A stretch of DNA of 53,574 nucleotides, filler included, from Stramenopiles sp. TOSAG23-2 (Eukaryota): assembly GCA_900128395.1 (NCBI GenBank). It is 4 parts of 4 records of this genome, joined end to end, with 100 filler letters (N's around TTAATTAATTAA, not from the genome) between each part and the next. Parts side by side here need not be neighbours in the genome. Positions count along the whole stretch, not along the records: positions 1 to 13,365 come from LT649806.1; 3 more parts are not named here. One strand, given 5' to 3'. A program made the position numbers and the translations under genes. The notes under the pieces are model-generated. The model made no database searches. It had not been told where the DNA came from and saw only the letters and a program-made list of their open reading frames with translations. Below, piece after piece: positions 1-50,157 of this stretch (its first letter is position 1; the number at the start of each line of letters is the position of its first letter).

Positions 1-274
1 TATAATAATAATAATAGTGTAATAGTGACTAATAATAATAATAAAAATACAAAATAATACTATGATATATTTATCGTTTATTACCACACTGAGTAGCTAT
101 TAATCTTTCTTACTAGAGTGAGAACCCTCGTGGATATATTCAACGCAACAAAGCACCATCGGGCATTTCAAATTCTCTATATACATGTTCCAACATTTGA
201 ATATAAAATTTCTGTTGTTAATCCAGTATTATAAACTGAAGCTATCTTTTTTTGTCTGAGTGTACACTGTTACT

Positions 275-3200
275 ATGATACTCTTTACAATGTTTCTAGT
301 CATATTTTTAAAAGGGATTTTTGTGACAGTTGCTTACCATAAGAATGAATGTTATGAGTTCGTTGGGTGCCCCGATAAACTGGAAGCAGTTCGCGGTGGA
401 ATGCAATTTTTAGATTGGAAAGGTAACTCTGTCTCTCAATTGCATATAAGCCAACCTGAATTTAACGAAAATGATAGCAAGTGGAAAATAGAGTTAAATA
501 CTGAAAATTTCCCTATGGAATTTCTAGTTGTAAAAAGTGATATTAAAGAATCGCTTGCTATGAAAATACAAAAAGATCGTCCTGCACATAAACCTGTAAA
601 CCCAATGTTAACACAAACAGCCGATATCACTCTCCCCGCTGCATATGTAGGCAAGTTTGCACAATCTTCAGACGCAACTGAAATATCATTTTTAAGATCG
701 AGAGGTACACGAAATTATCCAACCAATACAGAACAAAATGATGTATTAGGTTATATAACATTTAAATCATTCGCATCGAATAATTGGTATGCTGCTTCCC
801 AAATGTATGGAACGTTAGAGCAAGATTTGCCTGATATTGGAAAATCTGGTGGAAAACTAACATTTGCAACGACAGAATTAAATACTGCATATACGCATGA
901 ATTAATTGATAGAATGACAATAGATAGCAAAGGTCGTATGTTTCATCGATCTACGGCGGAAACAGGTATTGTTCATAATATTTTTGCTAATAATGTAAAC
1001 ACTGGTGTACCATTTAAAATACAAATGTCAAATTTAAGTTCTGGTATTGGTGTACATATAACAACTGAAATCGTAAAAGAAGATCCAGATAATGTGACTA
1101 CTTTTTTAGACGGGGGAACATTAAATGTCAGTACACATATCGTAGCAAAATATAAATCAGGAGATTTAATTGAAATAAACAATTGTACAAATATAGAAAA
1201 TAATGGAAAATATATTATTCGTTCTAGCCTTGGATCGACAATTCATTTGCAATCATTAGACGGGATTCCACCAACGAATTTATATGGCCCTGATACGACA
1301 TGCAATATACGGAAACCTGAAAGTATTCCAAAAATGGTTACACGTATAAGAAAGAAACAAATACAATCATTATCATCAAATGGAACTGTTGTAGTTTTTT
1401 TGGATAGTGACATTGATGATTATAATATCGGTGATTTAGTCCATTTTAATAATTGTCGTTTTTCAGAAAATAATGGTAAATATATTATTGAATATAAATT
1501 TACTGCTGTAAAGGTATTACGTTTAATTACAAGCGATGGGCAAGCAATAACAAATTTAATTGATGAACCATCGTCTACATGTCAAATAAGCCGACCACCG
1601 GGTACGGTAGTTAATATAGATGCACGTTCGCAAAGGCACGGGACATTGGTAGATATAAATGCAAATAATATGTTAGATGGTGAAATTGTATATATAAAAT
1701 CAAATAATTTACAAAATGAAGGAAAAGCAATTCATATTGAGTCTACCTCGCCTTTGTCCAATCATATCGTAAAATTAGATGCATATGAAAGTACATTTGG
1801 AAATGTTGTAGCTGTAAATGGAAGAGATATGAAAAACGGAAGTCTTGTGCATATAACATCAAATTTAGGTAATGCTTTAACAGGCTCTCCAACATCGTTT
1901 AGAATAGTTAATATTAATAACAGTGATACATCTACTACTGTTGTTGAACTGGAAAATTATAACAACAATTTTGAAACCGGCGATAAAGTACGAATAGTAG
2001 GAATAGGTGGCGATGACGACAGTACTAGTATGCACGAATTAAACAATAAAATATACACAATTTCACGAAATACTAATTCTACAAAGATTGAATTGGATGG
2101 CATAGATTCTTCTGGCTATACTGCCTACGATAATTCTATATCGTCTCGTGGTATTGTCACTCGTGTAGGTGGAAAACTATTGCACGTTCAAGGCGATTTT
2201 GAAACAGATGGGACGTTAGTAGATATCAGCGGTGTTGATTTAGTTGATGGAACAGCTTTAAAGATTACTGGTGGTGCACACATGGAGGAAGGTAATTTAA
2301 TAAGCTTACAAACATCTTCTAAAGATTTAGTAAATGGTGCATTGAGTTTAGTAGCAAATTCAGTGGAAACGGGAAGAATTATCAAACTTCATGGTAACAG
2401 TTTAACGACAGGAAAAATTATAGACATAGTTTCGACAACATCTGGCATGACATCTGATGGCAAAATAATCAATATCGATGTTACCGCAGCAACATCAGGT
2501 ACAATTATCGATATGAAAGCACCTGCATTGACATTAGGTACAATGATGGATATATCTGCCAAAGCATTAACGGAAGGTAAAGTAATCGATATAACTGATA
2601 ATGAAGATCTTACTACAGGACATTTACTTCATATAAAAACAATATCAGCTACAGCAGAAAAACCAATATTTATCGAATACGATAGTATGAATGTAGGAAC
2701 AGGTATAAAAATGGATGTACCAGCATTGAGCACTGGACATGGTATGGTAATTGATAGTCTTAATGGAAATGATTTATTAAATGATGGTTCAGGAGTATAC
2801 GGCACCGGTGGATCATTATTGACGCTAAACGGTACATCACAAACTGCAGGTACATTATTAGATATTGATGCCACTGCTTTAACAACCGGACGAGCTATAC
2901 GAGTCAAATCTGGGAATGTATCAAGTGGGGCGTTGCTGGATTTATTCACAAATAGTACTGCAGCTGGAAATACTAATGGACTTGTACGATTAACGGCAAA
3001 TAGTATTACCACTGGGGTCGGTATGAAAATTAGCGCTGCAGCACTAACTACTGGGAAAGCATTGCATATTACTTCTGGTAGTGGCACAGCATTGGCTGCA
3101 GGAGGGAGTTTGCTGCGGGTACAAGGTGATTCCGTGACAGCTGGTAATATTGTAGATATTAGTGCCACAGCAATGGAAACCGGGACGTTATTAAAACTTA

Positions 3201-6200
3201 CAAGCGGGAGCGAATTGACTAGTGGGAGATTGCTGCATTTACAAACAAGTTCAACGTTTAGTTCTTCCGATACTCTAGAAGGTGCAATATTTGATGTAAC
3301 AGCAAATGCTGTACAAACTGATCGCGTAGTGAGAATTAGCAGCAACAGCGTTAAAAGTGGAGCCGCACTTGAAATTGTTGCAACTGGCAACGATGCTACA
3401 ATGACTGGAGACGGACGTGTGATTGATATCCAAGCTGCAGAACAAACAACAGGGAAACTTTTAAAAATTGATGGATCAGCGCTGACAGACGGAATTGGAT
3501 TGTATATAAAAGGAGGGAATTTAACTACTGGATCCTTATTGCATTTACATAGTACATCTGCTGCATCACAAAATGGCATAATGCGTATTGATGCTACACT
3601 CATGACAACTAAAAAAGTTGTAACCGTAAATGCACCGGATGTAACATCCGGTACTGTAATAGATATTACAGCAGCAGAGAATAGCAATGGTAATATTTTC
3701 AGTGGCAAGCTCATAAACATAGTAGCAGGCGCTCAAGCAAATGCTGGGGGTACTATTGTAGATATTTCAGCAAATAGTCTAACAACTGGTATAATTTTAG
3801 ATATTACAAAGCATAAACTACAAGGTGCTGGGAGAGCAATTAAATTATCTGGAGGCTCTGGTGCAGAATTTCAAGCTGATGGTTTAGCTGAAAGCGGCAA
3901 AGCGCTTTACATACATTCAAATTCAGATAACTCGGATTACAAAAGTGTTGTTGAAATCGATAATAAAAATTCCGCATCTACAAAAACCCAGACTTTACAT
4001 CTCACTCACAGTGCAACTAGTGACTCGAATACCACCCTTGGACAGAAACCAGCAACAGCTTTAGCGATTGATTCATTACTCCCAGAAGCTGTATTTATAC
4101 GCGTTAGTAGTGATACCAATGCTGAAAATGGGGCGCAAATAACATTATCAAGAGATAGACAGGGAAGCGATTTGGCGCAGCCCGCAACAACAGTTGCAAA
4201 TGGCGATGTAATAGGACGTATCCATTTCGACGCATTTACGTCTGCTGTTAGACAAACTGTTGGAGCAATTGAATCTCGTGTTGATGATAGCTCATTAAGT
4301 AGCACTTCACTAGGTAGTAAATTGATTTTTAAAACTTCCCAAGTGAGTACAAACGCGACTCTAAAAACACGACTGGTCCTACCCAATGATCATAAGATGA
4401 TTCTGGGAGAGGGAGATGATGAATTTCACATTAAGAAAGCCATTAGAGCAACGGATGGGCATGGTACAGATTTAATTATTACAGGCCAAGCTGCTAGGGG
4501 TACAAATAATAATAATAATAATGGTGGCGATGTTATTGTTAGGGTAGGTTCACATACTGGTTCTGGTTTAAAAGGTGAAATGAAAGTTCAAAACGATGAT
4601 GGCACTGTTGATATATTAACAATAGATGAAGCCAAAACAACGTTAAAAACACCAACTATCGACGTTTCTGATGGTACAAAAACTATAACAATTGTCGACT
4701 CACAGGCAAGCTCGCTTCAAATAGGAACATCTAGTAATCCCGATATATTAAAAATCGATACATCTGATACCGTTGAAAAAGTTATTATAGATGGAAATTT
4801 TGATATAACCGAAAATTTGCTTGTTACAAAAGAATCTATTTTTACTAAGCAAGTAGTTATTTTAACAAAGAAAGTTCTTTCTAAAAACGATGTAGATGTA
4901 GAATTGTGTTACAAAACAGGAAATGGAAATGATGCATTTACCGATACTATTAAACTTGGTGGAACGGGTTCCACTGTATATATTTATCAAACCGATATAG
5001 GTGGGGGCTTCAGTTCTACCGGTGCAACAATAGAAGATGACGGTGATATGAAGACAAATGGTATCTTGACAGCAGACAGTGCAGTAAAATTAAATTATAA
5101 TGACAATACCAAAAGTGTTTCCTTGACCAAATCAAATGGAAAAATTTTCTATGGTGGGGCGCCTCCGATGAACATGCATATTGCTACAAACATGCCTAGT
5201 GTCGATTTAGATGGTAATGGGTTTTGCAACAATTGTAAAGTTATAAAGATTGGCACAAACACGGGTAATTCTGGTGCCAATATAATGATACTAGGGGGAT
5301 TGCATGTAGTGCAAGTGCATGGTGTGACGACAATTAACAGTATAGACACCAATGGTGTTTACACCGTTGCGAATGGCACGGTTTTTGCAAAGAATGAAAC
5401 GGTAACGGTATCAGGTTGCGATGCGGATGGAAACAATGGGGAGTTTCTAGTTTCTAGCATATATGGTGATAATATCACTTTGCATGACGTAAATGATAAC
5501 GCCATCACGACAATTGCTACTACTACTAATTGCAAAATCTCCACTATTACCGTTGTTTCTACAAACGGGAGTACATTTGAAGGCATGATGGGAATGAAAA
5601 TTGAAACATCTACTATTAATTGTTTAACAACAGCTTGTTCTGTACCAGATAACGGCGACATCGAATTTGGACTGGGAAAACATATTAATGGCAACATATT
5701 AAACTTGGACAATCAAAATGAATCAGATGATCATAGCATTTTCACTGGGGTTGTTGGAAATTTCGATGTCAACATCGGTACAGAAACTTGTACAATAAAT
5801 GTAACAGGTGACTTACAAATTGGCGGTGGATATGGTAGTGAATTAGGGTCTACTTTTGCAACAAATGGGGACGGATCATTGGATGGAAAACTTACTGTTG
5901 ATGGAACTTCTACCCTAACAGGCAGTGTCACATTTGGTGGAAATATAATAAGTGATCAACCAAATGAAGCTAAAACTATATTTAATACGATTACGTCTCA
6001 GACAATTTCTGTTGGTGCCGTTACCGGTAGCACCACATATATCATTTTAAATGCTATTAAGATTGGTGGGGAAGGTGCCGGTTATACTGGAAACACTGGA
6101 GCAACAATAGAAAAATCTGGTAATTTTTTCACAGATGGAAACATCATAGTCAAAAGTAATGTGGATCTAGACGGAAGTGCAAATTTTGATGTTGGTGGTA

Positions 6201-9200
6201 ATATTCTTCGTAATACACAAAGTGATTCAGAAATATTTACAGCCGTGACAAATGTCAATCATGATATCACTATTTTGCCAACTAACAGCACGAAACAAGT
6301 TAGTATGCCATTTAAGTTGCAAACTATCACCCAAACAGGAGGAGGTACAGCACATGTAGAATTTACATCATCTGGAGTACAAACAGAAAAAAAGCTTCAT
6401 GTAGATGTTCCTTTGTTTTATAATACAACTTTTGACGGAACGGATAATTCAAGTCACCCATCAGCGAACGCGTTAGATGGCAATTATGCCAATAAATGGA
6501 AAATAACCAGTTGCAATAGTTGCGGTCTTATCATGACAGGTCTAACAACTGATAGTGTTGTTACTAGTGTACGAGTAAAATGTGTTACTGTCTCTGACAA
6601 CAAGTGGCCTACATCCCTTGCAATTTATGGATCAGGTGATACAATCGTACCAAATGACGGTGGAACATGGACACAAATTGGGGGAGGGGACATTGCCATA
6701 CCTGATTTTACAAGTAACGATCAAGTCCAAACGGTAATATTTAGTAATTCTAATGTGTACAAGCATTATAAAATTGTATTTAAAACTATAAAATTAGGAA
6801 CTACAATGGAAATACGTGAAATTGCCTTACTTACGAATGTTGGAGACTTTAATGAAGATGTTATATTAAATGGTAATATAAGAGCAAGTACGTTAAAGAC
6901 CATCAACGGAAATGCAGTAAATACGAAAACTTTTGATCGCCATTTGAATTTTGCTAATACCCAAATAAAGATAAGCGGCACTGGTGGTGTAAAAGTCGAT
7001 AACTTGCATGTACATGCAAATGGAGACGAAAGCAACCCAACAAAGATTGAATCCGATGGAACATTTACTCTTGCTACAGATGGTAGCTTTCAAGTTGGCA
7101 CTTCGCCTCCAACTGCAGGGACCTCTGGTGATTTGGCATATGATAATGGAAAGCACATATCTGGTAATCCTCCTGGTACAAATGTAATTGCAACATTGCA
7201 AACGACTGGTGCTTCGGGCAGAGATCGTCAAATCTTCGTTACTACTACGAGCCAAGCGATTGATATTGGTGCAATTTCGAGTGGGTCTAACACGGTTAAA
7301 ACCCAAGCCTTTTCAGTTCAAAATGGTGCAACTACCATCTTAAACAACGGTGTTGTTACGTCAGGTGGAACATTGACGGTAAATAATGATGTTACGATTG
7401 GCACGCAAGGCGCCCCAAAATCAATTACAATAAATAACGGACATATTAAAGCATTAAGTAATTCTCAAATTACAGGTGGGCTGTTTACCAACTCTGGGAC
7501 AAATAACATTGCGATCGGTAACATCGATGGCAAAGTTAAGTTTCAGCATGATTTTAAAGTTGGAGATACCAATAATGATGGTACGACCGACGCCTTTACT
7601 GCTGTATTTAATACTGAATATACTTTGACTGCGACTGGCGATTGTACAATAAAAGGTTCAAATAGTGGTGGCGCAACAATTATTGCAAAATCTAGTACTG
7701 TTGGTACTGCTAAAGAAATATTTCGAAATGTTGCCAATACAAATATTGAGATCGGGAAAAGTGGCAGTGCAAATAGTATAGTAGAAATGGGGAATATAAA
7801 TTTGGTATCTGCGATGGAGGTTAAAGCTGGTACTATTGTTTTTAAAAAACATTTTGATTTCACATTGGCTGCAGGATCCGATGGACAAATTAAGTACTTT
7901 GTATATACAACCGGTGTTGTAACCATTACTGATATAACAACTAATGGTGTTTATACTGTGATAAATGGTACAGGTGATGTTGATAAATTCGCGGTAGGTG
8001 ATATGGTAACAGTTGCAGGTTGTACTGCTGCTGGAAATAATGGAGATTTCAAAATAAATACTAAAGGTACGGATACACTTGAATTAGTAACATCATTAGA
8101 TGCTGCAATCACAACAACAGCAGTTACTAGTGGAACTGGGGGATGTACAATATCAAAACGATATATAGATATCACCAACAACGATGGATCTACATGGTTG
8201 GCACGTTTGTCACATGAGTTTAAAATTTGCAAATTAATGTATGTTACAGATAAATGGGTTAAAATTAAACCAAGGCAAGTGTTGTATTTTTTACAAATTG
8301 AGCATCAAAATATTGATTACAATGTAGTAAAAAGTGGAACTTCGACTAATTTTGGTGACAACACGTTAGTTCCACCATTATCCGATTATACATTTGATGT
8401 ATTGCTTCCAGCATCCTCGAAAACAGATACTAGATATACAGGAGGTACTGATGTATTTATTTTTAATATTAAATTTAAATCAAAAGTTAAAAATGACTTT
8501 TTATATGCAAAAGTTACTTCACCATCTGGTGGAAAATTTACTGATAAACAAGTTGTCTCTGACAGCGATACTACAACAACATTATCTTCAGACGAAGGAA
8601 ATAATAGACTAGTTATAAAACCAGGTGATTATGCGGATAACATTGTGCAAATATTTCATAGTATTGATGGTACATTTAGTATTCGTATAAGAAAACCATG
8701 TGCAAAGGGATATTATTTTGATAGTAACGAATGCATCATTTGTGCCGCAGGCCAATATAGCACAACAGAACCTTTTCAAACTAGTACTTGTATAAATTGC
8801 CCAGCGGGTACATTCAACAATTACGGTTCGTACGCACCTTATCATGATAGCACATCTGATTGTACAACGTGTTATAGTGGAAAATACCAACCTTATACCG
8901 GACGGACTAGTTGCTATAATTGTCCTGCTGGTAGTTATCGAACAACTGATTCAACAAATGATTTAAAACCTTGGAATGGTAATAATAGATTTTATATGGA
9001 TTCAATCTCCGATTGTACGATATGTGGAGCAGGCAAATATAGTGAAGCTAATGGACAAACATCCGAAAGCACGTGTACCGATTGCCCAGTGGGAACATTC
9101 AACAATCAACCAAGCAATTATTGGTATCATTATACTGGACATGATAGCACATCTGATTGCACAACGTGTAATAGTGGAGAATACCAAGACGGAACCGGAC

Positions 9201-10574
9201 AAACTAGTTGCAAAGATTGTCCTGCTGGTAGATATCGAACAACTGATTCAACAAATGATAATAAAAATTGGAATGGTAATGCCAATGGAAATAATGATGG
9301 TATGAAAGCAGAAGCCGATTGTACGATATGTGGTGCAGGCAAATATAGTGAAGCTACGAAAGCAAATGCCGAAAGCACGTGTATCAATTGCCCAGCTGGT
9401 CGATACGGTGTAAATAATGCGAATACTGTTGGTGAACATGATCAATTATCTGATTGTGCGATATGTGGCGCAGGTAAATATAGTGAAGCTGTAGGAGCAC
9501 AAACATCAGCTACTTGTAGTGATTGCCCAGCTGGTACAATTGGTGTAAATAATAATAATGTTGTAGGTGATCATGATCAAGAAGCTGATTGCACAACGTG
9601 TAATAGTGGAGAATACCAAGACGGAACCGGACAAACTAGTTGCAAAGATTGTCCTGCTGGTAGATATCGAACAACTGATTCAACAAATGATAATAAAGAT
9701 TGGAATGGTAATGCCAATGGAAATAATGATGGTATGAATGCACTCGACGATTGTACGATATGTGCAGCTGGTAGTATCACAGATACTGGAACAGCTGATG
9801 GTGCTACAACCTGTACGCCGTGTGTTGCCGGTAAATTTTCCGCTAGTTCTAATGTGGCATCTTGCTCTGATTGTGCAGCTGGTAGTATCACAAATACTGG
9901 AACAGCTAATGGTGCTACAACCTGTACGCCGTGTGTTGCCGGTAAATTTTCCACTAGTTCTAATGTGGCACAATGCGATAATTGTGTTGCTGGTACATAT
10001 AACGATTTGAATACTGGAATAGCTACATTTTTATAACGATTTGAATACTGGAATAGCTACATGTAAAACATGCACAGCTACCGAGAGCAATAAATATGTA
10101 TCTACTGCTTGTACAACTACAGTCAACACAGTGTTCACATCATGTGGTACCTGTAATGCTGGTCAATATATATCAACGGCATGTGCGGTTGGTGATGCAA
10201 CCACGGTAGGTTCCGTTGCAATCTGCACGGCGTGTGTCGCCGGTAAATTTTCCGCTAGTTCTAATGTGAACTCTTGCTCTGATTGTAATGCTGGTAGTAT
10301 CACAAATACGGGAACAGCTAATGGTGCAACAAGCTGCACGGCGTGTGTTGCCGGTAAATTTTCCACTAGTTCTAATGTGGCATCTTGCGATAATTGTGTT
10401 GCTGGTACATATAACGATTTGAATACTGGAATAGCTACATGTAAAATATGTGGCGCAAATGAATGGCAAAATGGAGTCGGTGAAACTTCTTGCAAAAGTT
10501 GTCCAGGTGCAAAAGTTACAAACGGTAACGCTGCTGCAGACCATGATGAGAATAGTGATTGCACCAATCAATAG
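275..10574 (+). CDS. Giant (~3,420 aa) secreted adhesin/fibre-like protein: signal peptide, phage tail-fibre-like motifs, five E1-FCCH-like beta modules, beta-solenoid repeats, discoidin (F5/8C)-like domain, C-terminal Cys-rich ephrin-receptor/TNFR-like repeats
   Basis: ORF 260..10036 has its first ATG at 275 (MILFTMFLVIFLKGIFVTVA). It continues in ORF 10041..10574 across a 34-bp insertion that duplicates tataacgatttgaatactggaatagctacat (9998-10028 and 10032-10062). Motifs: FLRSRGT..PT...NDVLGYITF (~685-770); GD.V.I..C...NNG.(Y/F) at ~1150, 1420, 1970, 5380, 7990; G..L.I....LTTG repeats ~2170-3900; SANALDGNYANKW ~6460; C..C.AG.Y/F repeats 8700-10570. No introns needed. Confidence 0.85.
8700..10560 (+). 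repeat. Intragenic Cys-rich module repeats, some nearly identical at DNA level
   Basis: 9153-9306 matches 9585-9738 with one mismatch seen. 111-bp units start at ~9761 and ~9872 and recur at ~10225-10440. Confidence 0.9.
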
Positions 10575-10941
10575 CAAGTTTGATCATTTTTGTTTGGTGT
10601 TCCAAAATGCATTATCATAAATGATGCTGGTCCCTTGTGCTTATTTATAGCTGTTGTGCAATTGGATCCAACACGCATTGCGGTAGCAGAGATGGCTACA
10701 ATGTTGGCAGTGGCATCCATATATAAATATTGTAAAGAGTAGCCCGATGCTGGACCATAAGGTATTTACGTGGCGCGTGACAGCAACCATGTGCATATTC
10801 ATAAATGGCCCGACGTAGGTCCTCTTTATAAATATTACATACAAAATACTTGCACCATACATACATAAATAAAATATAAAACCCGTAAAAAAACATCAAA
10901 CAAATACAAACCACCCATGATATAAACACGGACGATCATAT

Positions 10942-11660
10942 ATCGATGAGTTTTTACTTACAAAATCCAAACTGACCCAAATACACTACACAAGCGATTT
11001 AAAGTATTTCAGAAAATGGTTGAAGGAAAATAATATCCCAGAGGCTGTTACACGCATTCGATTCCTCGACGTTTAGCGATACTTAAAAACGGTAGTGGTA
11101 TCTCCATCCCGGAGAAGAAAGATCATTACATTAAAATCTTTCTTTCACTATCTACACTTGAACGACTATATCACTAAAGATATATATTAAAGTGTTTAAA
11201 AGTGCCACCAGCAACTAAATGCAGAGTAGGGAGAAAAATGACAGAGGAAGAGGTATAATGGTATACTTAAAAAAGCCAGAGGGAAGGTAAAACTGGTGCC
11301 TTTTCTTTCTCGGTCTTCGTGTATCTGAAGCATTGTCCTTGAAGAAAAAGGATGTGATCTACGGACCACGGTTGTCCTTTTCGGTGATGGGAAAAGGTCA
11401 GAAGCGGAGAGAGGTATTGACTGGGAGAATGGTATCGAAAAAGATTTGGCATCAAATATTCAAGATGGTGGGCACAGAGACATTTAAAGCGTCACCACAT
11501 TGGTTGAGACATGCATTTTGCAGTCTTAGTATCCAAAAAGGGTGCGATGTAGGGACTGTGAGCATCGCCATTGGGGCATACCACTTTGGCCACTACACGC
11601 AGATACGGCCATTCCGCCAAACCACCCGGCGAGTATTTGGAGGAAGCAGCATTTCTTTGA
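10942..11660 (+). pseudogene. Degraded XerC/XerD-like tyrosine recombinase (phage integrase family)
   Basis: Manual translation across frames gives an N-terminal core-binding segment (YTSDLKYFRKWL...DV*RYL...RRKIITLKSFFHYL, TAG at 11074), box I GLRVSEALSL (11312), GKGQKRREV, HWLRH (11498) and, after a frameshift at ~11570, LGHTTLATTRRYGH (Tyr at 11604), with stop at 11658-11660. Further frameshifts lie near 11185, 11258 and 11300. Confidence 0.9.
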
Positions 11661-11728
11661 GTCAGGAAAGTACTGATTACTAAAAAATATATTTTTATTT
11701 TTTAAAAATATTTTACGTGCGTATTAAA

Positions 11729-12081
11729 ATGTACGCTATTTTAACTTTTTTACTAATGCCATACTCTCAAAAGACAAATACAGGTTGACTGAGCCAAATG
11801 ACGAGAAAATTATCATATCACACTGGACGTAGAATGTCCAAAATCAGGACAGAACCTTATTTTCTACATCCATATACCAGATATCATATCATATCATAGT
11901 GTTTTGAGCCAATATTTAATATCATATCATATGATACGTATCGCACAATATGTGTCAATAACTCCAATATGATAGGAATTACGATGTTTATCAACCTTCT
12001 GTTGATGAAAAATGGGCATTATATACGAAGGTGGAGAGAATAAATTGTATACCAGGGTACGCATACGAGTACGTTAATTAA
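11729..12081 (+). pseudogene. Small decayed ORF of unknown function
   Basis: MYAILTFLLMPYSQKTNTG*LSQMTRKLSYHTGRRMSKIRTEPYFLHPY..., with in-frame TGA at 11786. It resumes in another frame as DRNYDVYQPSVDEKWALYTKVERINCIPGYAYEYVN*, interrupted by (atatc)n expansions. Confidence 0.4.
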
Positions 12082-12397
12082 ATTTAGAGACACACCGTAA
12101 ATATTGTAAATTTACGCGCGCGTAAATATTTTAAATTTTATAAATTTTTAATTTTTAATTTTTCTACTCGGTGATAATTCTAAATAACCGCCACCACGTC
12201 CACCTGGATGATTGACAAATCCAAGCTCATTGTGTCGCCATCCACCGCAATCACTAGCTATTTTTAATTACAACCGGCGGGGCCTTAGTATAATGCCCAT
12301 ATTCCAATCAACATCCGCTGCATTCCATCCAATATCATCCCCCTCCTCCTCATCATACATATATAATATATCTCTACCTCTACTATACGACATTTTC

Positions 12398-13365
12398 TTA
12401 TGCCTCATCCATATTGTTCAACCATCGATTTGTCCAATACGAATCACCAACATTTTCTTCTTCCTCGTCAAAAAGGTAACTCTTAGTAGGCCTCTTGAGA
12501 TTTCCAGGATTTCTTGCAGATCTTCTTTTTTCTCTTTCTTCTCTTCTTTTTTCTCTTTTTTCAGCACCACGGAGCTTTGAACCTTTTTTTATTGGAGGTG
12601 GAAAATATTGACATGCTTCTTCAGTGGATCCTTGGGTGGCACAACGACAGTACAAATATGATATTTCATATTTATCAGTGGAAATACCATTACGACTTAA
12701 TACTTTAAGAGCACGATCAAAATATTGTGTTCCGGTACCACCTACATAAGAATGTACATCATTTACACATTTATCCCAAGCTTCATTTTTGATTAAGCAT
12801 TCTGGTACAGGGCAATTTCGTATTTTTGGTAAACGATTATAAACATATTTGTTACACCTGTTACACTGCTCTTCGCAGTTATTAGCGCAAGGTTGTGTGC
12901 GCCAGCCAGGAACTTTGCCACCGCGATCATTACAAACTTGGTAGCATTTATCGTAACAGTTTTGATTAACTTCATATTTTTTATTTCCTGCAGATCTCCC
13001 AGGGCGATAACCAGCATCACAACGGTCAACGTCTTCATCACTTTCATCAAAGTTAAATGGATTTAGAGGCACACCACGTCCAGCTGGTTGATATTCGTAT
13101 CCAATTTCACTACCAAAGTCATATGTTGCACCGTCATCCATCATATCGAATTTAATATCCTTCCATGGTTTTTTTGGTTTTTTAAAGGAATCATCACATG
13201 TCAACTCAGTATTTTTGAGACGTTCACTTTCTATGACACCAAGTGCAGTTGCTTGAAAAGATGCAGTAATAAAGTGGATATCTGCTTCTTTGATTGCTGC
13301 ATCTCTTTTTTTCCATTCAAGCTTTGTGCTTTTAAATCTACCTCCCATGCTCGATTTCGATTTTA
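12398..13365 (-). CDS. Cys-rich hypothetical protein with acidic spacer motifs; possibly 5'-partial and 3'-degraded
   Basis: ORF 12398..13348 stays open to the contig end. It has a Cys cluster (CYDKCYQVC...CANNCEEQCNRC) and FDESDEDVD / FDEEEENVG motifs. Coding-like sequence with stops continues to ~12150. Confidence 0.6.
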
Positions 13366-13465
13366 NNNNNNNNNNNNNNNNNNNNNNNNNNNNNNNNNNN
13401 NNNNNNNNNTTAATTAATTAANNNNNNNNNNNNNNNNNNNNNNNNNNNNNNNNNNNNNNNNNNNN
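13366..13465. other. Artificial contig linker N44-TTAATTAATTAA-N44
   Basis: 100-bp spacer with stops in all six frames, identical at three positions. Confidence 0.98.
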
Positions 13466-15866: not shown

Positions 15867-17316
15867 ATGTCGAAAAAAAAAGTATTGCCATGTGCAATTA
15901 CATTATTAAAAGAACGTTTTTTATTATCTGCAATGACAAATGAGAATTTAGGAAATATATTAAATAGAATGGCATGTGATTATAGAGACGATGAAATAGC
16001 GCAAGCGACAACTCCACCACCATCTGTATATGTAGGTTTTGATCCGACGGCAAGTTCTTTGCATGTTGGAAATCTTGTATCGGTACGTGCGTTAGAAATT
16101 TTTCAAGCATCTGGTTTTCGTCCAATAGCTTTAATAGGTGGTGCAACTGGATTAATTGGAGATCCAAGTGGGAAAAGTACAGATCGTATATTATTAAATG
16201 TAAAACAAGTGGAAGAAAATCAGTTTGGCATTGAAAAATCATTAAAGCAAGTATTAGATTTCAACGGAAACAATAATCAACAGATCAAAATGGTAAATAA
16301 TATAGACTGGTATGATAATATGTCAGCTTTTGAATTTGTTCGTGACATTGGTCAACATTTTCGATTGTCTCAAATGTTATCAAAAGATAGTGTTCGAAAT
16401 CGTTTAGAATCAGATGTTGGGATAAGTTTCACGGAATTTTCATATCAAATGTTTCAAGCCCATGATTTTTATCATTTATATAACAATGAAAATTGTATAT
16501 TGCAAATTGGTGGTAGTGATCAATGGGGTAATATAGTTGCTGGATGTGAATTAATACGTAGACGTTTGGGTAATAATGATGATAATAATAATAATAATAA
16601 TAATGCATATGGTATGACGGTCCCATTGATGACCACTGCAAGTGGTGAAAAAATTAGGAAAATCTGCTGGAAATGCTATATGGATTGATCCAGATAAAAC
16701 GTCTCCATATGATTTTTATCAATATTTCATGCAAATTAAAGATGAAGATATTGTAGGCTTAATACCATTAATGGGCGTACATGTAAATATGAATGGTGAA
16801 GGTGAATATATCCATGATGATTATGATAATGAATTTTCATTAAATAAAGCAAAAGATGTAATAAAATTACATCAACAAGATCCTGGGAAAAGATATGGTC
16901 AAACATTTTTAGCTGAATCTATGACTACATGGGTACATGGTGAAGAAGTATGTCAAAGCGTACGCAAATTATCAAAAACTTTATTTCAAAAAAAGAAAAA
17001 AAGTAGTAATAATAGTAACGATATCAAAGACATGTTAAAAATGGCATTAAAAAATGGCAATGTTACCAAAGTAGAATTAAGGAATGATGACCTATCATCA
17101 ATAACAATTATAGAATTAAGTATGAAATGTAATGCGATTAAAAGCAAAGGTGAAGGTAAACGTTTGGTAAAGAATGGTGGATTATATGTAAACGATGTAC
17201 GAGTTGAAAATATTAATGAAATATTTGATATGGAAAAACATATTGTAGACGATCAATTTGTAATAGTACGTGTTGGTAGAAAATCACAATACATTATTCA
17301 AATATCGTTGTTGTGA
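15867..17316 (+). CDS. YARS2: Tyrosyl-tRNA synthetase, bacterial/mitochondrial type (one frameshift)
   Basis: YVGFDPTASSLHVGN (HIGH motif), QIGGSDQWGNI, KLGKSAGNAIW (KMSKS motif), C-terminal S4 domain (SKGEGKRLVKNGGLYVND). An extra A in the run at ~16648-16653 splits ORFs 15867..16688 and 16642..17316. Confidence 0.95.
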
Positions 17317-19520: not shown

Positions 19521-20285
19521 ATTGATTGTGTTTTGTGCTGATGTTTTTAATTAAAAAACTAAAATGCAATAACAAGCAATCTATTCCGCCGATTGTCCGT
19601 CCTTTGCAACAAAAGTATTAAAAATGATTGAAAGGATCTTCTTCTTTCACTTTGACTTCATGTATTATATATTGTGCTATTTATATTCATTCAAAATAAA
19701 AAATATAATATCGTTCTTCTATCCATCACAGCAAAAAATCTAAAAAAAAATTAAAATCATAATATAATAGAGTGGGCGGGAAATGTCACCACCTCGATGC
19801 CAGAATCCATCACCACGGATTCATTATTTCAATTTTATATAATAAGTTTCAAAATATACCAGAAAATGTAGTAAAACATGAACGCCAATTAGCATATAAA
19901 TAATATTACAAACTACTTACTTTCAATCACATAAAAAAAACTTACCTAAATCCTTTTTTTATCAATTTTTTATGGCGATGACAATGCTATTCCCTTGCCT
20001 TTTTTACGTATCAATCAAATTTTGAAGGAGGATGAGAGGTCATAGTCCATTTTAGGGTCCATCAAAAAGAAATTGAGCTTTGTATAGCATGCATTTACCA
20101 TTAGCTGTTTTTCAAACTAAAAAAAACACACATAGAAAAAAACAAATAGAGATAGATAGATAGATAGATAGATAGATAAAGAAAAAGAAAACAAAAAACA
20201 AAAAAACAAAAAAACAAAATCAAAACAATCCACGCTTACGTAAACAAGATACAAAAAATCGAATTATATCAATTAATAAAAAACA

Positions 20286-21116
20286 ATGTCATCAGAAACC
20301 ATGGGCAGTAATAATTCCACCACAAAAACCGAAGATCAAGTAGTTGAATCATCCAAAAGTGTCGAAGAAACTAAAACAGAAAATGTTGAAATTGTTGATG
20401 AACCTGTAAAATCAATCGATGCGAAAGGTGAAGATAGCTCGGAAAAGAAAAGCGACGAAAAACCTGTAGAGGAAAAAAAAGATGAAGAAAAAGTCGATGA
20501 AAATAAAATGGATGTTGAAAAAGATGATAGCGAAAAAAAAGATAGTGAAGTCGACGAAAACAAATCAAATGCAAGTGAAGAAGCAGCTAAAGTCGAAGAA
20601 GATAAAAAAGAAGAATCAGATACTACTGCAGCAGCAGCAAAAGATGATGATGCTGATGAAAAAGTAGCAGAAACAACTGACGAAAATGTTGATAAATCTA
20701 AATCCCCAGAAGAAAAGAAAGATAACGAATCTGTTGAAAAATCCGACGTAGTGAAAGAAAGCGAAGATTCGAAAGAAGATGCAGAAGAAGATAAAAAATC
20801 TACTGATGAAACAACCCCAGTCGTTGAAAAGCCAAAAGATGTCGATGTTAACAAAGAACCAGTTGCTGATGAAGATTTGAAAAAAGATGAAGCACCAATT
20901 GCAAAAGACGACGATGTCGAAATGTCCGAACCAAAAGAGACAACATCAACTGCTGGTAGCAAACGTAAAGAGAGTCCAGTCGCAGAAGATGATGCAAAAA
21001 TTGATGGTAGTGCTAAACGTGCGAAAGTAAACAAAGTAGACGAGAAAGTTGATGAAGTTGTTGAAAAAGCAAACGAAGTTGAAAGTACTGCGTCAAAAGA
21101 TGCAATCGTCGCTTAA
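20286..21116 (+). CDS. Acidic E/D/K-rich disordered protein with a bipartite NLS-like motif
   Basis: 276-aa ORF with no aromatic or Cys residues; SKRKE...AKRAK near the C-terminus; A-rich start context. Confidence 0.85.
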   Translation: MSSETMGSNNSTTKTEDQVVESSKSVEETKTENVEIVDEPVKSIDAKGEDSSEKKSDEKPVEEKKDEEKVDENKMDVEKDDSEKKDSEVDENKSNASEEAAKVEEDKKEESDTTAAAAKDDDADEKVAETTDENVDKSKSPEEKKDNESVEKSDVVKESEDSKEDAEEDKKSTDETTPVVEKPKDVDVNKEPVADEDLKKDEAPIAKDDDVEMSEPKETTSTAGSKRKESPVAEDDAKIDGSAKRAKVNKVDEKVDEVVEKANEVESTASKDAIVA

Positions 21117-26797: not shown

Positions 26798-26897
26798 NNN
26801 NNNNNNNNNNNNNNNNNNNNNNNNNNNNNNNNNNNNNNNNNTTAATTAATTAANNNNNNNNNNNNNNNNNNNNNNNNNNNNNNNNNNNNNNNNNNNN
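26798..26897. other. Artificial contig linker
   Basis: N44-TTAATTAATTAA-N44. Confidence 0.98.
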
Positions 26898-40188: not shown

Positions 40189-40288
40189 NNNNNNNNNNNN
40201 NNNNNNNNNNNNNNNNNNNNNNNNNNNNNNNNTTAATTAATTAANNNNNNNNNNNNNNNNNNNNNNNNNNNNNNNNNNNNNNNNNNNN
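40189..40288. other. Artificial contig linker
   Basis: N44-TTAATTAATTAA-N44. Confidence 0.98.
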
Positions 40289-46754: not shown

Positions 46755-49700
46755 TCACTTATTCATCGCAGTCAACGCAGCTTTCTTCGCTTTATCCACA
46801 TGTGTTTCCATATTTTTTTTCGTATCGGTAACAAAACTCCAAAAATCTTTTTTCTTTTTTGATCCAGTCCTATTATTACGATTATTCTTAACATTTTTCA
46901 TACTACCATTATTACCACCACCACCACTACCACCATCTTCCCCATTGACATTTGCATCTGGTTTATAATCGGGACTGTTTTTATATTGTTCTAAAAAATT
47001 ATCTTGTTCATTCTTTTTAATACCTTTTAAATTCATTAAATCAATAAAATCACTTTCTGTTGCAGCGGGCCATATTACTGGAAGACTTTCAATTAATCGG
47101 AAACTTGGTGTTTGTACTAATTTTAAAATTGCTTCTGCTTTACCAATTTCACGTACAACAACTTTTGTATATGCATCCATACGTTTTGAATTAGAAATAA
47201 TAACTGTATGATTATTATTTCCATCATCATCATCATCATCTGCATGCGTAAAACTGCGTAATTGTGTAAATATTTGTTTTAAACTTTGTGTATCTAATAA
47301 TAATTGTTGTGCACCTTCTTCACATATTTTTTTACATTTGTAAATCGTTGTAGTATATCTGTTTGTGGGTGTATATATATATATATTTATGTGATGTATT
47401 GAATATAAAATAACATTGTTAGAATAGTTTACTTGTATGTCAATATATAAATGTAGCAATATATTATACTTACTGTGGCAAAAAGGAAGAAATAAATGAA
47501 TCACAAAAACTACGGAAATACGTTTCCGATAATAATTTCTTCAATAATGGAACAACATCTAAACATGTTTGATGAATTAAACCAATATATTGTGATTGAT
47601 CACCAACGTCCGCCCATGTATCCCATGGCATTTTCGTCATAATATCTAAATGCTTCAATAAACGTTGTTCCAATCCACTTGCTAAAACACGTATGGAAAT
47701 ATTAATTACATCATAAAATGAATCTTCAATCGCATCCATATTAATATGATCTTTAAATGCTTCATCGATTTTTTCACGTACCATATCCGCTAGTTGTGGA
47801 GATGTTTCTGCACAATATTCAGATGTATTTACAATTAAACATGCCATTCGTAATACATCTTCACCATCATCTAATTTATAATTTGCATGTGCAGCAACAT
47901 TGTTATTATCTCCATTGTTATTATTACTACTGCTATCATTTAATGGTTTTGGTAATTTATTAATTAATAAATTACTATATCGTGTTAAAACATCTTGATA
48001 TTCTTTTTGTAAATTATAAAATGTTTGTCCTGTACTATATCCAGTACAACGTTTTACACTTTGTTTAATATAACCAAATAAATTTACCGAACTACTAAGT
48101 ACAGGAAGTCCACTTTGATCATCCGTACTACCATCTTCCGCCATCACTTCATCTAACATATTCTCCATATTTTGACGTTCTTTTTTCACATATGCAATCA
48201 TATATGCATCAAAACTACGACTGATATATCCACGAAATTTCACATCAATCGTTTTTAACCCTTTTTGTTCCATTTCTTTTTGTTCTTGTTCCATTTGTTC
48301 TACTTTTTCTTTCCGTGCATTGCGTTCGCCAAGACGTTTATATTTCAATTGTATACCAGCACTTGAATTTGGATCGACAACATTGCCATCATCATCCATT
48401 AACATACTATCTGCTGAATTTTCATTTAATTGACCTTCACTTAATACTGCTTGCCTTGCTGCATTGACTTCAAATGTTGCAGCGGCTTCACGTTCAAATG
48501 CTAATGTTTTCGTTAATCCTTTTAATAATAATTCCACATCTGCACTTTCTGGTGGATCTATTTTTAAAAGTATATTAGTAATCATCGTTTTCGTACGTTT
48601 TGCAAAATCCAATGCCATACGATGTAAAATACACCAATCACGTGGGAATACATTGCCATATCTTTGTGTGTTTGTTTTATGATGTAAAAATAGATATGGA
48701 AAAGAAATGAAATGTTAGTCATTTATATGTTTGTGTTTGTAGGTAGGTGTATATATATGTGTGTGTGTGTGTGTCCATATGTCAACGTGTAATGTATATA
48801 TATATACACATATATATATACCGATCAAAGTAGATATATAACTATACATACTTTTCTTCGTATTTACGAACGGTACGTCTCCACCATGCATATCGTACAT
48901 CTATACATACTTTTCTTCGTATTTACGAACGGTACGTCTCCACCATGCATATCGTCGTTCAATTGTTTCTAATTTATCTTCTCCACCATTTTCACGAAAG
49001 ATTACATCATATACATTTAAATGTATATCACAAAATTGTTGTATAATCCTTTCTTTAATCTCTGGATCTAATGAATTGACAACAATGCATGCATCGGATA
49101 ATTGATCAATACTATTTAAACCAGGTAAGGGACTTGCAACACGTTTATTATCGTTGTTGTTGCTGCTGCTGTTATTATTATTACCATCCATTGAATCATC
49201 ACCATTCTTATTATTAGTATCATCATTTTCTCCATTACGTTCATCACTTGCTAATGTACGTATATATTTAAAATCATTTAATATACGTTTTGTTAATTCA
49301 TCTTTTGTATCTTTAACAGAATTACGTAATTCCGCAATTTTTGGTACTTGATCATAATCTTGAAAATAATTATACAATTCATTTACAGCTTGTAATAGAT
49401 TACCAGCTTCACGATATTGCCGTCCTTCTGCCATAACTTCCAATTGATCTACAGCAGTAACAAGCATATGTAAACGTTTTAATGTTGTAATAGATGTTTG
49501 CAAATTTGTTTTTGCATTATCTAATAATTTAATATCATGACATATTTCATCTACCATATGTTCACTTTCTTGTGCTTTTGATTTAATATCTTTTACTTTG
49601 GAATATAATTGTTTGATAGCATTTTTTGCTTCATCTACTTGTGCATGTGCATTTGTCGATCGATTTGCTTGACTATGTATAATATCTTTAATTTCTGATT

Positions 49701-50157
49701 TTGTTTTGACAATATCACGTTGTATATTTGCAATAAATGTATCAGCACGATTTAATGAAGCCTCGTCTGGAAAATGTTCATTTAAATATGCAATTGGATC
49801 AAAATCTTCTTGATCCAATGGATCATCAGAGGGGCACACTTCACGCATGGATTCTTGCAAGTCATCGCTAAATAATGAAAAATCCATACTTTGTCCAATC
49901 ACATCATCAATTTCTTTAATAGCTTTTTCAACACCATTAATATGTTTTGTTAATTTTTGTAATACTGGGTGAACCTCTGGATCATCTTCTGTTGTCCTAT
50001 CATATATTTTATTTATATTTTTTGGTTGTGTTGGATTGATGGATGGTGGTATTGTAAAGGTGTCATCGTCGTCGTCGTTGGTGGTGGTGGTGGTGGTGGT
50101 GGTGGTGTTAGTATCATCAATGATATCAATATCGTTAGGTGATGTTGTATCTGTCAT
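46755..50157 (-). CDS. VPS53: Vacuolar protein sorting 53 (GARP/EARP complex), 1012 aa, 3 exons
   Basis: DPLDQEDFDPIAYLNEHFPDEASL, DIKLLDNAKTNLQTSITTLKRLHMLVTAVDQL, IVNTSEYC, GAQQLLLDT. Exons 50157-48911, 48661-47474 and 47358-46755 total 3039 nt; both introns are GT-AG. Confidence 0.96.

Follow-up and report, generated by a model that had tools for sequence, protein, structure and literature searches.

The window analysed here, a stretch of 53,574 bases from Stramenopiles sp. TOSAG23-2, is made up of four contigs of about 13.3 kb each, separated by runs of N at 13366-13465, 26798-26897 and 40189-40288. In the list of open reading frames (ORFs), contig 1 (window positions 1-13365) holds a giant ORF, a 1.8-kb spacer and a minus-strand gene of 316 amino acids (aa). 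Within that spacer, on the plus strand at 10928-11660, lies a dead tyrosine recombinase gene with the two-domain build of the Xer type. A frameshift-aware alignment to P0321, an intact 267-aa protein from marine metagenomes taken as reference, resolves this relic into the following pieces.

10928..11660, plus strand: the whole relic, from a mutated start ACG to TGA (frameshift-aware alignment to P0321 and tblastn pieces).
10939..11181, plus strand: core-binding (SAM-like) piece, residues 4-84, with an in-frame TAG within (PF02899 and frameshift-aware alignment).
11184..11255, plus strand: inter-domain linker piece, residues 85-108 (ILKCLKVPPATKCRV...), in a second frame (alignment).
11257..11295, plus strand: residues 109-121 (GILKKARGKVKL), in the first frame again; a net 8-nt loss follows, and residues 122-124 are gone.
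11297..11452, plus strand: catalytic domain part 1, residues 125-176, with R132 (GLRVSE) and K157 (GKGQK) (PF00589).
11454..11492, plus strand: remnant YSRWWAQRHLKR, in another frame, left behind by a 17-codon deletion.
11495..11569, plus strand: catalytic domain part 2, residues 213-237, with H214 (11498), R217 (11507) and H218, after a 6-codon deletion.
11571..11657, plus strand: C-terminal piece in a shifted frame, with LGH and the nucleophile Y249, one codon deleted; the stop TGA is at 11658-60.

Both domains are recognisable by Pfam. The stop-to-stop frame 11291-11680 matches PF00589 with an E value of 3e-7 (30.8 bits, over the cut-off of 27.1), and the frame 10921-11187, with its TAG read as X, matches PF02899, the SAM-like core-binding domain, with an E value of 1.6e-7 (32 bits, over the cut-off of 22.3). 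The sole entry of the ORF list in the spacer is a 116-aa ORF at 11333-11683, which by itself scores 17.7 bits against PF00589, below the cut-off of 27.1. The alignment to P0321 locates R132 at 11318-20, K157 at 11393-5, H214 at 11498-500, R217 at 11507-9, H240 at 11577-9 and Y249 at 11604-6, with LGH beginning at 11571. The relic retains 240 of the 267 codons, and 226 of these 240 aligned codons (94.2%) are identical to P0321. With PF00589 above its gathering score and all catalytic residues locatable, the relic belongs to the tyrosine recombinase superfamily; as a working enzyme it fails, as it has no single open frame with a start codon.

The gene carries ACG at the position of its start codon (10928-30), a 2-nt insertion at 10937-8 and a TAG at 11074-6, aligned with a Q of P0321. 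Its frame changes seven times, after 10936, 11181, 11255, 11295, 11452, 11492 and 11569. The change after 11181 is an extra TA inside a TA run, that after 11255 is a single extra base, and that after 11295 is a net loss of 8 nt, by which three codons were removed. Those after 11452 and 11492 flank the deletions of 17 and 6 codons, and the last sits directly 5' of LGH. Four deletions (3, 17, 6 and 1 codons, the last near the C-terminus) account for the 27 missing codons. Because Y249 and H240 are read in a different frame from that of R132 and K157, and what lay between K157 and the HxxR motif is deleted, the relic cannot catalyse recombination and cannot make the enzyme. We also considered that TAG might be read as glutamine in a variant genetic code, and rejected this: an ORF of 3258 codons and other genes are open under the standard code, and the frame changes would persist anyway.

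An original prediction, made by a model from the sequence alone, had proposed a dead tyrosine recombinase with the compact Xer layout of bacteria and phages at this place. Both points are borne out, the first by two Pfam domains above their cut-offs, the second by the combination of PF02899 and PF00589 and by the fold described below. The catalytic coordinates it gave (R 11318, K, HxxR 11498, LGH 11571, Y 11604) all match the alignment to P0321, and the 116-aa fragment that it named as the only trace in the ORF track agrees with the ORF list. It had described the damage as a stop and about 4 frameshifts; the one stop and the kind of damage were right, and the count was too low, given seven frame changes, a lost start and four deletions.

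Could the gene be intact in the organism, and its lesions be errors of assembly or amplification? This assembly is the only one to show the TAG and four of the frame changes (10936, 11181, 11255 and 11295), one of them being a slip in a TA repeat and another a single extra base, and P0001, 98% identical to the relic, keeps a single frame past 11181, 11255 and 11295. The TAG, the insertion at 10937-8 and the frame changes at 11181, 11255 and 11295 are either later events in the lineage or errors. The remaining lesions speak otherwise. P0151, a JGI metagenome sequence that differs from the window at several residues, has both internal deletions as well as the frame change before LGH, and its read-through runs on into a 3' flank homologous to that of the window. 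The first (17-codon) deletion is common to P0001, P0152, P0151 and the relic. Since these lesions are shared with non-identical sequences of other assemblies, they are not errors of this one, and the net 8-nt loss at 11296 is atypical of base-calling error. We therefore give hardly any credence to an intact gene behind the lesions.

The relic led to a family of intact relatives. Our search of 1.84 billion representative proteins gave 205 matches at E values of 1e-3 or lower, five at 1e-10 or lower and one at 1e-30 or lower, which include the near-identical fragments P0001 (98%) and P0003 (94%) as well as intact relatives of 259-267 aa. A word-indexed search with P0002 returned clusters 53-100% identical to it, all metagenome-derived, after which identity drops to about 32%, to XerD of Flavobacteriia. 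In pairwise comparison the family clusters are mutually 61-100% identical and fall into two groups, the first with P0321, P0195/P0330, P0196/P0337/P0339 and P0194 (73-99% identical), the second with P0002/P0192 and P0193/P0394 (61-70% identical to the first). The 11 family rows of a quick maximum-likelihood tree (56 rows in all) group together in a single clade with a Shimodaira-Hasegawa-like approximate likelihood ratio test (SH-aLRT) support of 100; this clade is sister (99) to unnamed compact recombinases of about 260 aa and stands apart from the named XerD rows. The more distant compact relatives (P0005, P0006, P0013 and others) carry generic 'XerD' labels only, and the named clusters nearest to the family in the Atlas are bacterial. 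A scan of JGI metagenome contigs yielded mostly generic Xer genes, with a best identity of 35% among the matches listed.

Residues R132, K157, H214, R217, H218, H240 and Y249 are invariant in an alignment of 54 sequences. P0002 scores 87.2 bits against PF00589, and PF02899 scores among the relatives range from 22.6 to 40.5 bits. The Pfam scan of five family and outgroup proteins listed only PF00589, PF02899 and PF13495. For P0321, AlphaFold gave a model with a predicted local distance difference test score (pLDDT) of 91.1 and a predicted template modelling score (pTM) of 0.74, whose closest folds in the PDB are XerH, XerA, IntI4 and Cre; by sequence, E. coli XerD (E value 9.6e-22) ranks first in the PDB. 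The intact relatives are thus predicted, with high confidence, to fold as a C-shaped clamp made up of the SAM-like core-binding domain and the catalytic domain.

Three family members carry names from EukProt: 'Stramenopile-MAST_4_protein_5058' (P0339), g8030.t1 (P0330) and g3570.t1 (P0394). Truncated members lie on contigs of 216,302, 31,422 and 20,088 nt (P0334, P0376 and P0392), and two other copies, P0337 and P0367, on contigs of 9 kb and 7.1 kb. Because relatives of the recombinase and of both flanking genes have EukProt names, and the truncated relatives sit on long contigs, contig 1 is suggested to be nuclear DNA of a marine stramenopile similar to marine stramenopile group 4 (MAST-4); this assignment rests on names given by the source, and single-cell proteomes may contain contaminants. 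In a search of sequencing runs, which reports presence and not expression, the stretch 10600-12400 was present in part in 20 of the 24 listed runs, from 9 studies, and half of these 20 are on record as RNA (shares 0.29-0.67), so that it is widespread across marine DNA and RNA data sets. On sequence grounds, the family appears confined to uncultured marine stramenopiles. It is apparently undescribed: the literature titles and abstract openings searched, which do not extend to supplementary gene lists, describe no Xer-type family in marine stramenopiles, and the mention found of 'MAST-4' together with 'recombinase' has a title that concerns giant viruses.

A bacterial origin, as DNA of a contaminant or symbiont or as a very recent transfer from prey bacteria, would agree with the bacterial or phage-like architecture of the protein, with the bacterial identity of the nearest named Atlas clusters and with the description of MAST-4 as bacterivores (PMC13724720). 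The collections of prokaryotic and mobile sequences argue against it. A scan with two family motifs, covering 185,579 prokaryote species with one genome apiece (GTDB), gave five relatives in 307 candidate stretches, four of them full-length and only 27-31% identical, the fifth 41% identical over 75 residues only. The tblastn search found matches in 136 phage and 909 plasmid records, none at 60% identity or more and none above 30.5% among the matches listed, and blastn of the relic against plasmid and phage records gave no match. No family member was found in GTDB genomes, IMG/VR, or phage or plasmid records. The genes on both sides of the relic, moreover, have Cys-rich receptor repeats of eukaryotic type and relatives in EukProt. 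A bacterial source is, in our view, very unlikely.

We tentatively prefer to read the relic as what decay has left of a small selfish element, with a recombinase as its only gene, in MAST-4-like nuclear DNA, a reading that in our judgement falls just short of being probable. The family would be, or once have been, such an element, with a Crypton-like lifestyle and an Xer-like protein, and would excise as a circle and then reinsert; the relic would be one insertion under neutral decay in the 1.8-kb spacer between two resident genes, and we infer that it is functionally unconnected with the giant gene beside it. By analogy with characterised recombinases, the live enzyme would hold the DNA in a clamp formed by its two domains, on paired inverted half-sites, and cleave it with Y249, forming a 3'-phosphotyrosyl link, and strands would be exchanged two at a time via a Holliday junction, with no need for high-energy cofactors. 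Recombinase-only transposons (CryptonS) do exist in stramenopiles, according to PMC3212892.

Evidence for such an element comes from the copies closest to P0321. Nine of the 34 members of its 90%-identity cluster were read: one is intact (P0321), five are damaged and three are ambiguous (P0197, P0318 and P0324). The damaged ones (P0316, P0317, P0319, P0326 and, on a 7-kb contig, P0322) have differing alternative-frame tails or end prematurely. As different lesions occur in copies at least 90% identical, near-identical copies died separately. Truncated copies are also present in other subfamilies, again on long contigs (P0334, P0376 and P0392). In the intact members read, the ORF is uninterrupted and of bacterial type.

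Several observations weigh against this reading. Element ends, target-site repeats or a recombination site could not be defined, and the 53.6 kb searched contain one copy only. The branching of the clusters may merely mirror that of the host species, as it would for a single-copy gene inherited vertically. The lesions form a nested series from P0321 through P0324 (which also has the C-terminal variant of the relic piece 11571-11657) and P0151 to the window, and this series, together with the 3' flank common with P0151, is what a single locus decaying within a population would give. Among the lesions, the TAG and the four frame changes (10936, 11181, 11255 and 11295) that are seen in this assembly alone may be errors. 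Two further lines that might have supported a mobile element were rejected. Database member counts cannot serve as a proxy for copy number, as the clusters of the control, a neighbour gene that looks single-copy, have 24 and 12 members compared with 34 for the recombinase. Short contigs are no sign of repeats or of mRNA, as relatives of both neighbour genes also occur on contigs of about 0.5-2.4 kb, a length typical for any gene of this organism in the assemblies concerned.

A serious rival is a pseudogenised host gene, which we regard as quite possible. A bacterial-type recombinase would have been acquired once by the ancestor of MAST-4, by old transfer or domestication, inherited vertically in single copy with a cellular role, and have lost its function in this lineage or population. 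Intact ORFs of 266-269 aa with full catalytic sets are found across clusters that differ by up to 39%, and full-length ORFs kept across such divergent clusters imply long purifying selection. The cluster tree is species-like in shape, the nested lesions and the 3' flank common to the window and P0151 suggest one locus, and the stretch with its flanks recurs in the 20 runs mentioned above. What the host-gene explanation accommodates less well are the separate inactivating lesions in copies at least 90% identical and the truncated copies of other subfamilies on long contigs. The N-terminus, judged by eye, has no obvious added leader (MDDYIEEF), and the two divergent groups (61-72%) both have members with 'g....t1' names in EukProt, which may be two paralogues in one genome. 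Also counting against a host gene, an enzyme of this kind has no known cellular role in eukaryotes whose chromosomes are linear.

A bolder proposal, which we think less likely than not, is that MAST-4, an uncultured group of grazers abundant in the ocean, may still harbour a live autonomous element of about 1 kb, whose sole gene would be a 267-aa Xer-type recombinase of bacterial ancestry adapted to the nucleus, and of which the window would hold a fossil. If so, it would be among the smallest autonomous mobile elements of eukaryotes and a new recombinase-only branch distinct from Cryptons.

The genes on either side of the relic, neither of them part of it, are the following.

275..10574, plus strand: giant gene (ORF 260-10036 plus 10041-10574).
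12398..13348, minus strand: 316-aa Cys-rich gene, without a Pfam family, near the contig end.

The giant gene has an N-terminal hydrophobic leader, Cys repeats of the Ephrin_rec_like/TNFR-like type and a weak F5/8-C domain. Its first 795 residues are 40% identical to 'Stramenopile-MAST_4_protein_3835' over 89% of that region, 58% identical to a protein (P0409) on a contig of 235,131 nt, and 97% identical to Tara-labelled fragments. From its sequence relatives, it looks like a resident gene of the lineage. The similarity of P0409 fades after about 400 residues, which could be due to a frame break or an intron. P0409 and the truncated recombinase P0334 (on the contig of 216,302 nt) each lie on contigs longer than 200 kb. 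In the Cys-repeat region of the giant gene, a perfect 34-bp tandem duplication at 9998-10062 (1.9 copies, 100% match) shifts the frame and leads to a stop at 10034-6, the last 177 codons running on in another frame; removal of one 34-bp unit would restore the frame. This duplication may be a fresh and real lesion, a polymorphism, or an artefact of amplification or assembly. Past the TAG of the giant gene (10575-7), an ORF at 10590-10742 has, by eye, a hydrophobic stretch and a short basic tail (...IAVAEMATMLAVASIYKYCKE), and a GT...AG interval at about 10555-10649, likewise seen by eye, could be a short intron leading to a last exon with a membrane anchor.

The 316-aa gene has relatives 80-91% identical, and one EukProt protein matches it at 89% over 20% of its length. 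On the minus strand at 12192-12396, just 3' of its stop, there are degenerate echoes of its motifs, namely a 38-nt direct repeat with 13072-13109 (76% identity) and a tail of the type DEEE...W..N...W.NM. These could correspond to a decayed tandem partial duplicate or to a further exon.

The neighbourhood bears on a third reading of the relic, that of the original prediction, in which a virus-like element (polinton-like virus, virophage or giant-virus insert) has integrated and makes up contig 1, with a dead integrase and a giant cargo gene that stayed open and was domesticated. The relic does adjoin an unusually long gene without detectable introns, the G+C content of contig 1 (0.31-0.41) is somewhat higher than in the other three contigs (0.25-0.40, mostly about 0.27-0.33), and tyrosine recombinases serve polinton-like viruses and virophages. 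The cargo gene, however, is frame-broken by the 34-bp duplication and has diverged relatives in MAST-4, and adjacency is the only link between it and the recombinase. Capsid, packaging ATPase and polymerase genes, for which the prediction had suggested a search, gave no signal in Pfam scans of contig 1, nor did reverse transcriptase, and nine frame translations of the spacer outside the relic (10577-10940 and 11660-12397) contain no Pfam family. The prediction had also called for a placement among known recombinases: the fold is Xer-like, the family clade stands apart from the named XerD rows, and the hallmarks of polinton-like viruses, DIRS elements and CryptonA-type Cryptons (viral genes, reverse transcriptase/RNase H and DUF3504, respectively) were not seen. 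Its placing of the relic in eukaryote-type DNA is supported by the EukProt-named relatives of the recombinase and of both flanks, two of which are named 'Stramenopile-MAST_4'.

Virus collections point the same way. In IMG/VR, none of the 42 candidate stretches found with the family alignment encodes a relative; with a broader alignment 130 of 189 stretches do, at a best identity of 34%, and compact outgroup proteins as queries reach 35% at best. The N-terminus of the giant gene has one weak match in 63 candidate stretches (L190:1944-2165, 37% over 77 aa, query 564-640), which probably reflects a small domain in common rather than viral kinship. The best viral folds in BFVD are phage integrases at 13-23% identity, and the one named eukaryotic-virus entry in the best 50 is an entomopoxvirus protein at rank 13 (14%). 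We therefore consider an integrated virus-like element improbable.

Contigs 2-4 carry eukaryotic housekeeping genes recognised by Pfam, that is Vps53_N (2.6e-72), exocyst Sec6, a class-I W/Y tRNA synthetase (2.6e-54), ankyrin repeats and a C-type lectin; scans of the whole window gave no tRNA genes and no Rfam matches. Vps53 lies in two long minus-strand ORFs, 48901-50157 and 47470-48618 (window 47470-50157), and the W/Y-type tRNA synthetase likewise in two, 15867-16688 and 16642-17316. Such splits point to introns, or else broken frames, in the host genes on contigs 2 and 4. The 1-kb bin 20001-21000 has a very strong AT skew (0.448) and long ORFs on both strands (20286-21116, plus; 20336-21034, minus), suggesting a purine-rich, low-complexity coding or repeat region.

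As a pseudogene the relic is ordinary; its value lies in pointing to a compact Xer-type family whose closest named relatives are only about 30% identical. If the family is mobile, it would represent a new kind of eukaryotic recombinase-only element, through which genomes could change in a major group of bacterivores of the ocean. A host gene, on the other hand, would mean that a eukaryotic nucleus has retained a site-specific recombinase of bacterial type, which is rare, and would leave its role to be explained. Either way, a 267-aa recombinase already working in a eukaryotic setting would be worth testing as a tool.

Among known systems, the DIRS, Ngaro and VIPER elements have reverse transcriptase and RNase H beside the recombinase; the translations of the spacer contain neither, and the matches of the giant gene are receptor-type repeats. 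With the integrases of polinton-like viruses, virophages and large DNA viruses the family shares its superfamily and an occurrence inside protist genomes, but no viral neighbours were found in contig 1 and the family has no relative in IMG/VR. The Xer recombinases (E. coli XerD, 1a0p; archaeal XerA, 4a8e and 5hxy; H. pylori XerH, 5jjv) share with the family a SAM-like core-binding domain and a catalytic domain, a length of about 260-300 aa and the full R-K-H-R-H-Y set. Identity to them is only about 22-32%, and the family scores 129-135 bits against the NCBIfam Xer models, whose cut-offs of 220-335 it does not reach (for P0002, XerD 133.4 against 329.6, XerC 130.3 against 335.15 and XerA 128.8 against 220). 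As these scores are far below the equivalog cut-offs, the family is, by sequence comparison, Xer-like in build and not an orthologue of XerC, XerD or XerA. It differs from them, too, in its location in eukaryote-type DNA, in lacking any known dif site or FtsK partner and in a C-terminal tail of its own (...AEKPxxEYLE).

In its proposed lifestyle the family resembles Crypton DNA transposons, especially the CryptonS elements known from oomycetes and a diatom (Kojima and Jurka, 2011; PMC3212892). The family has no match to DUF3504 or other Crypton-linked Pfam families and no conserved extra C-terminal domain, a separation that is based on Pfam and on published description. CryptonS ends are described there as terminal direct repeats of 5-6 bp, mostly TATGG; the stretch 10577-12397 contains no TATGG and six copies of its complement CCATA, where 2.2 would be expected, which decides nothing. 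The same source portrays Cryptons as low in copy number, with many decayed fossils and a proposed cycle of excision, circle and reinsertion. Like CryptonS, the family has a eukaryotic stramenopile host and a recombinase as its sole recognisable gene, and the relic, in its apparently nuclear setting with no other Pfam domain in its flanks, has the same composition.

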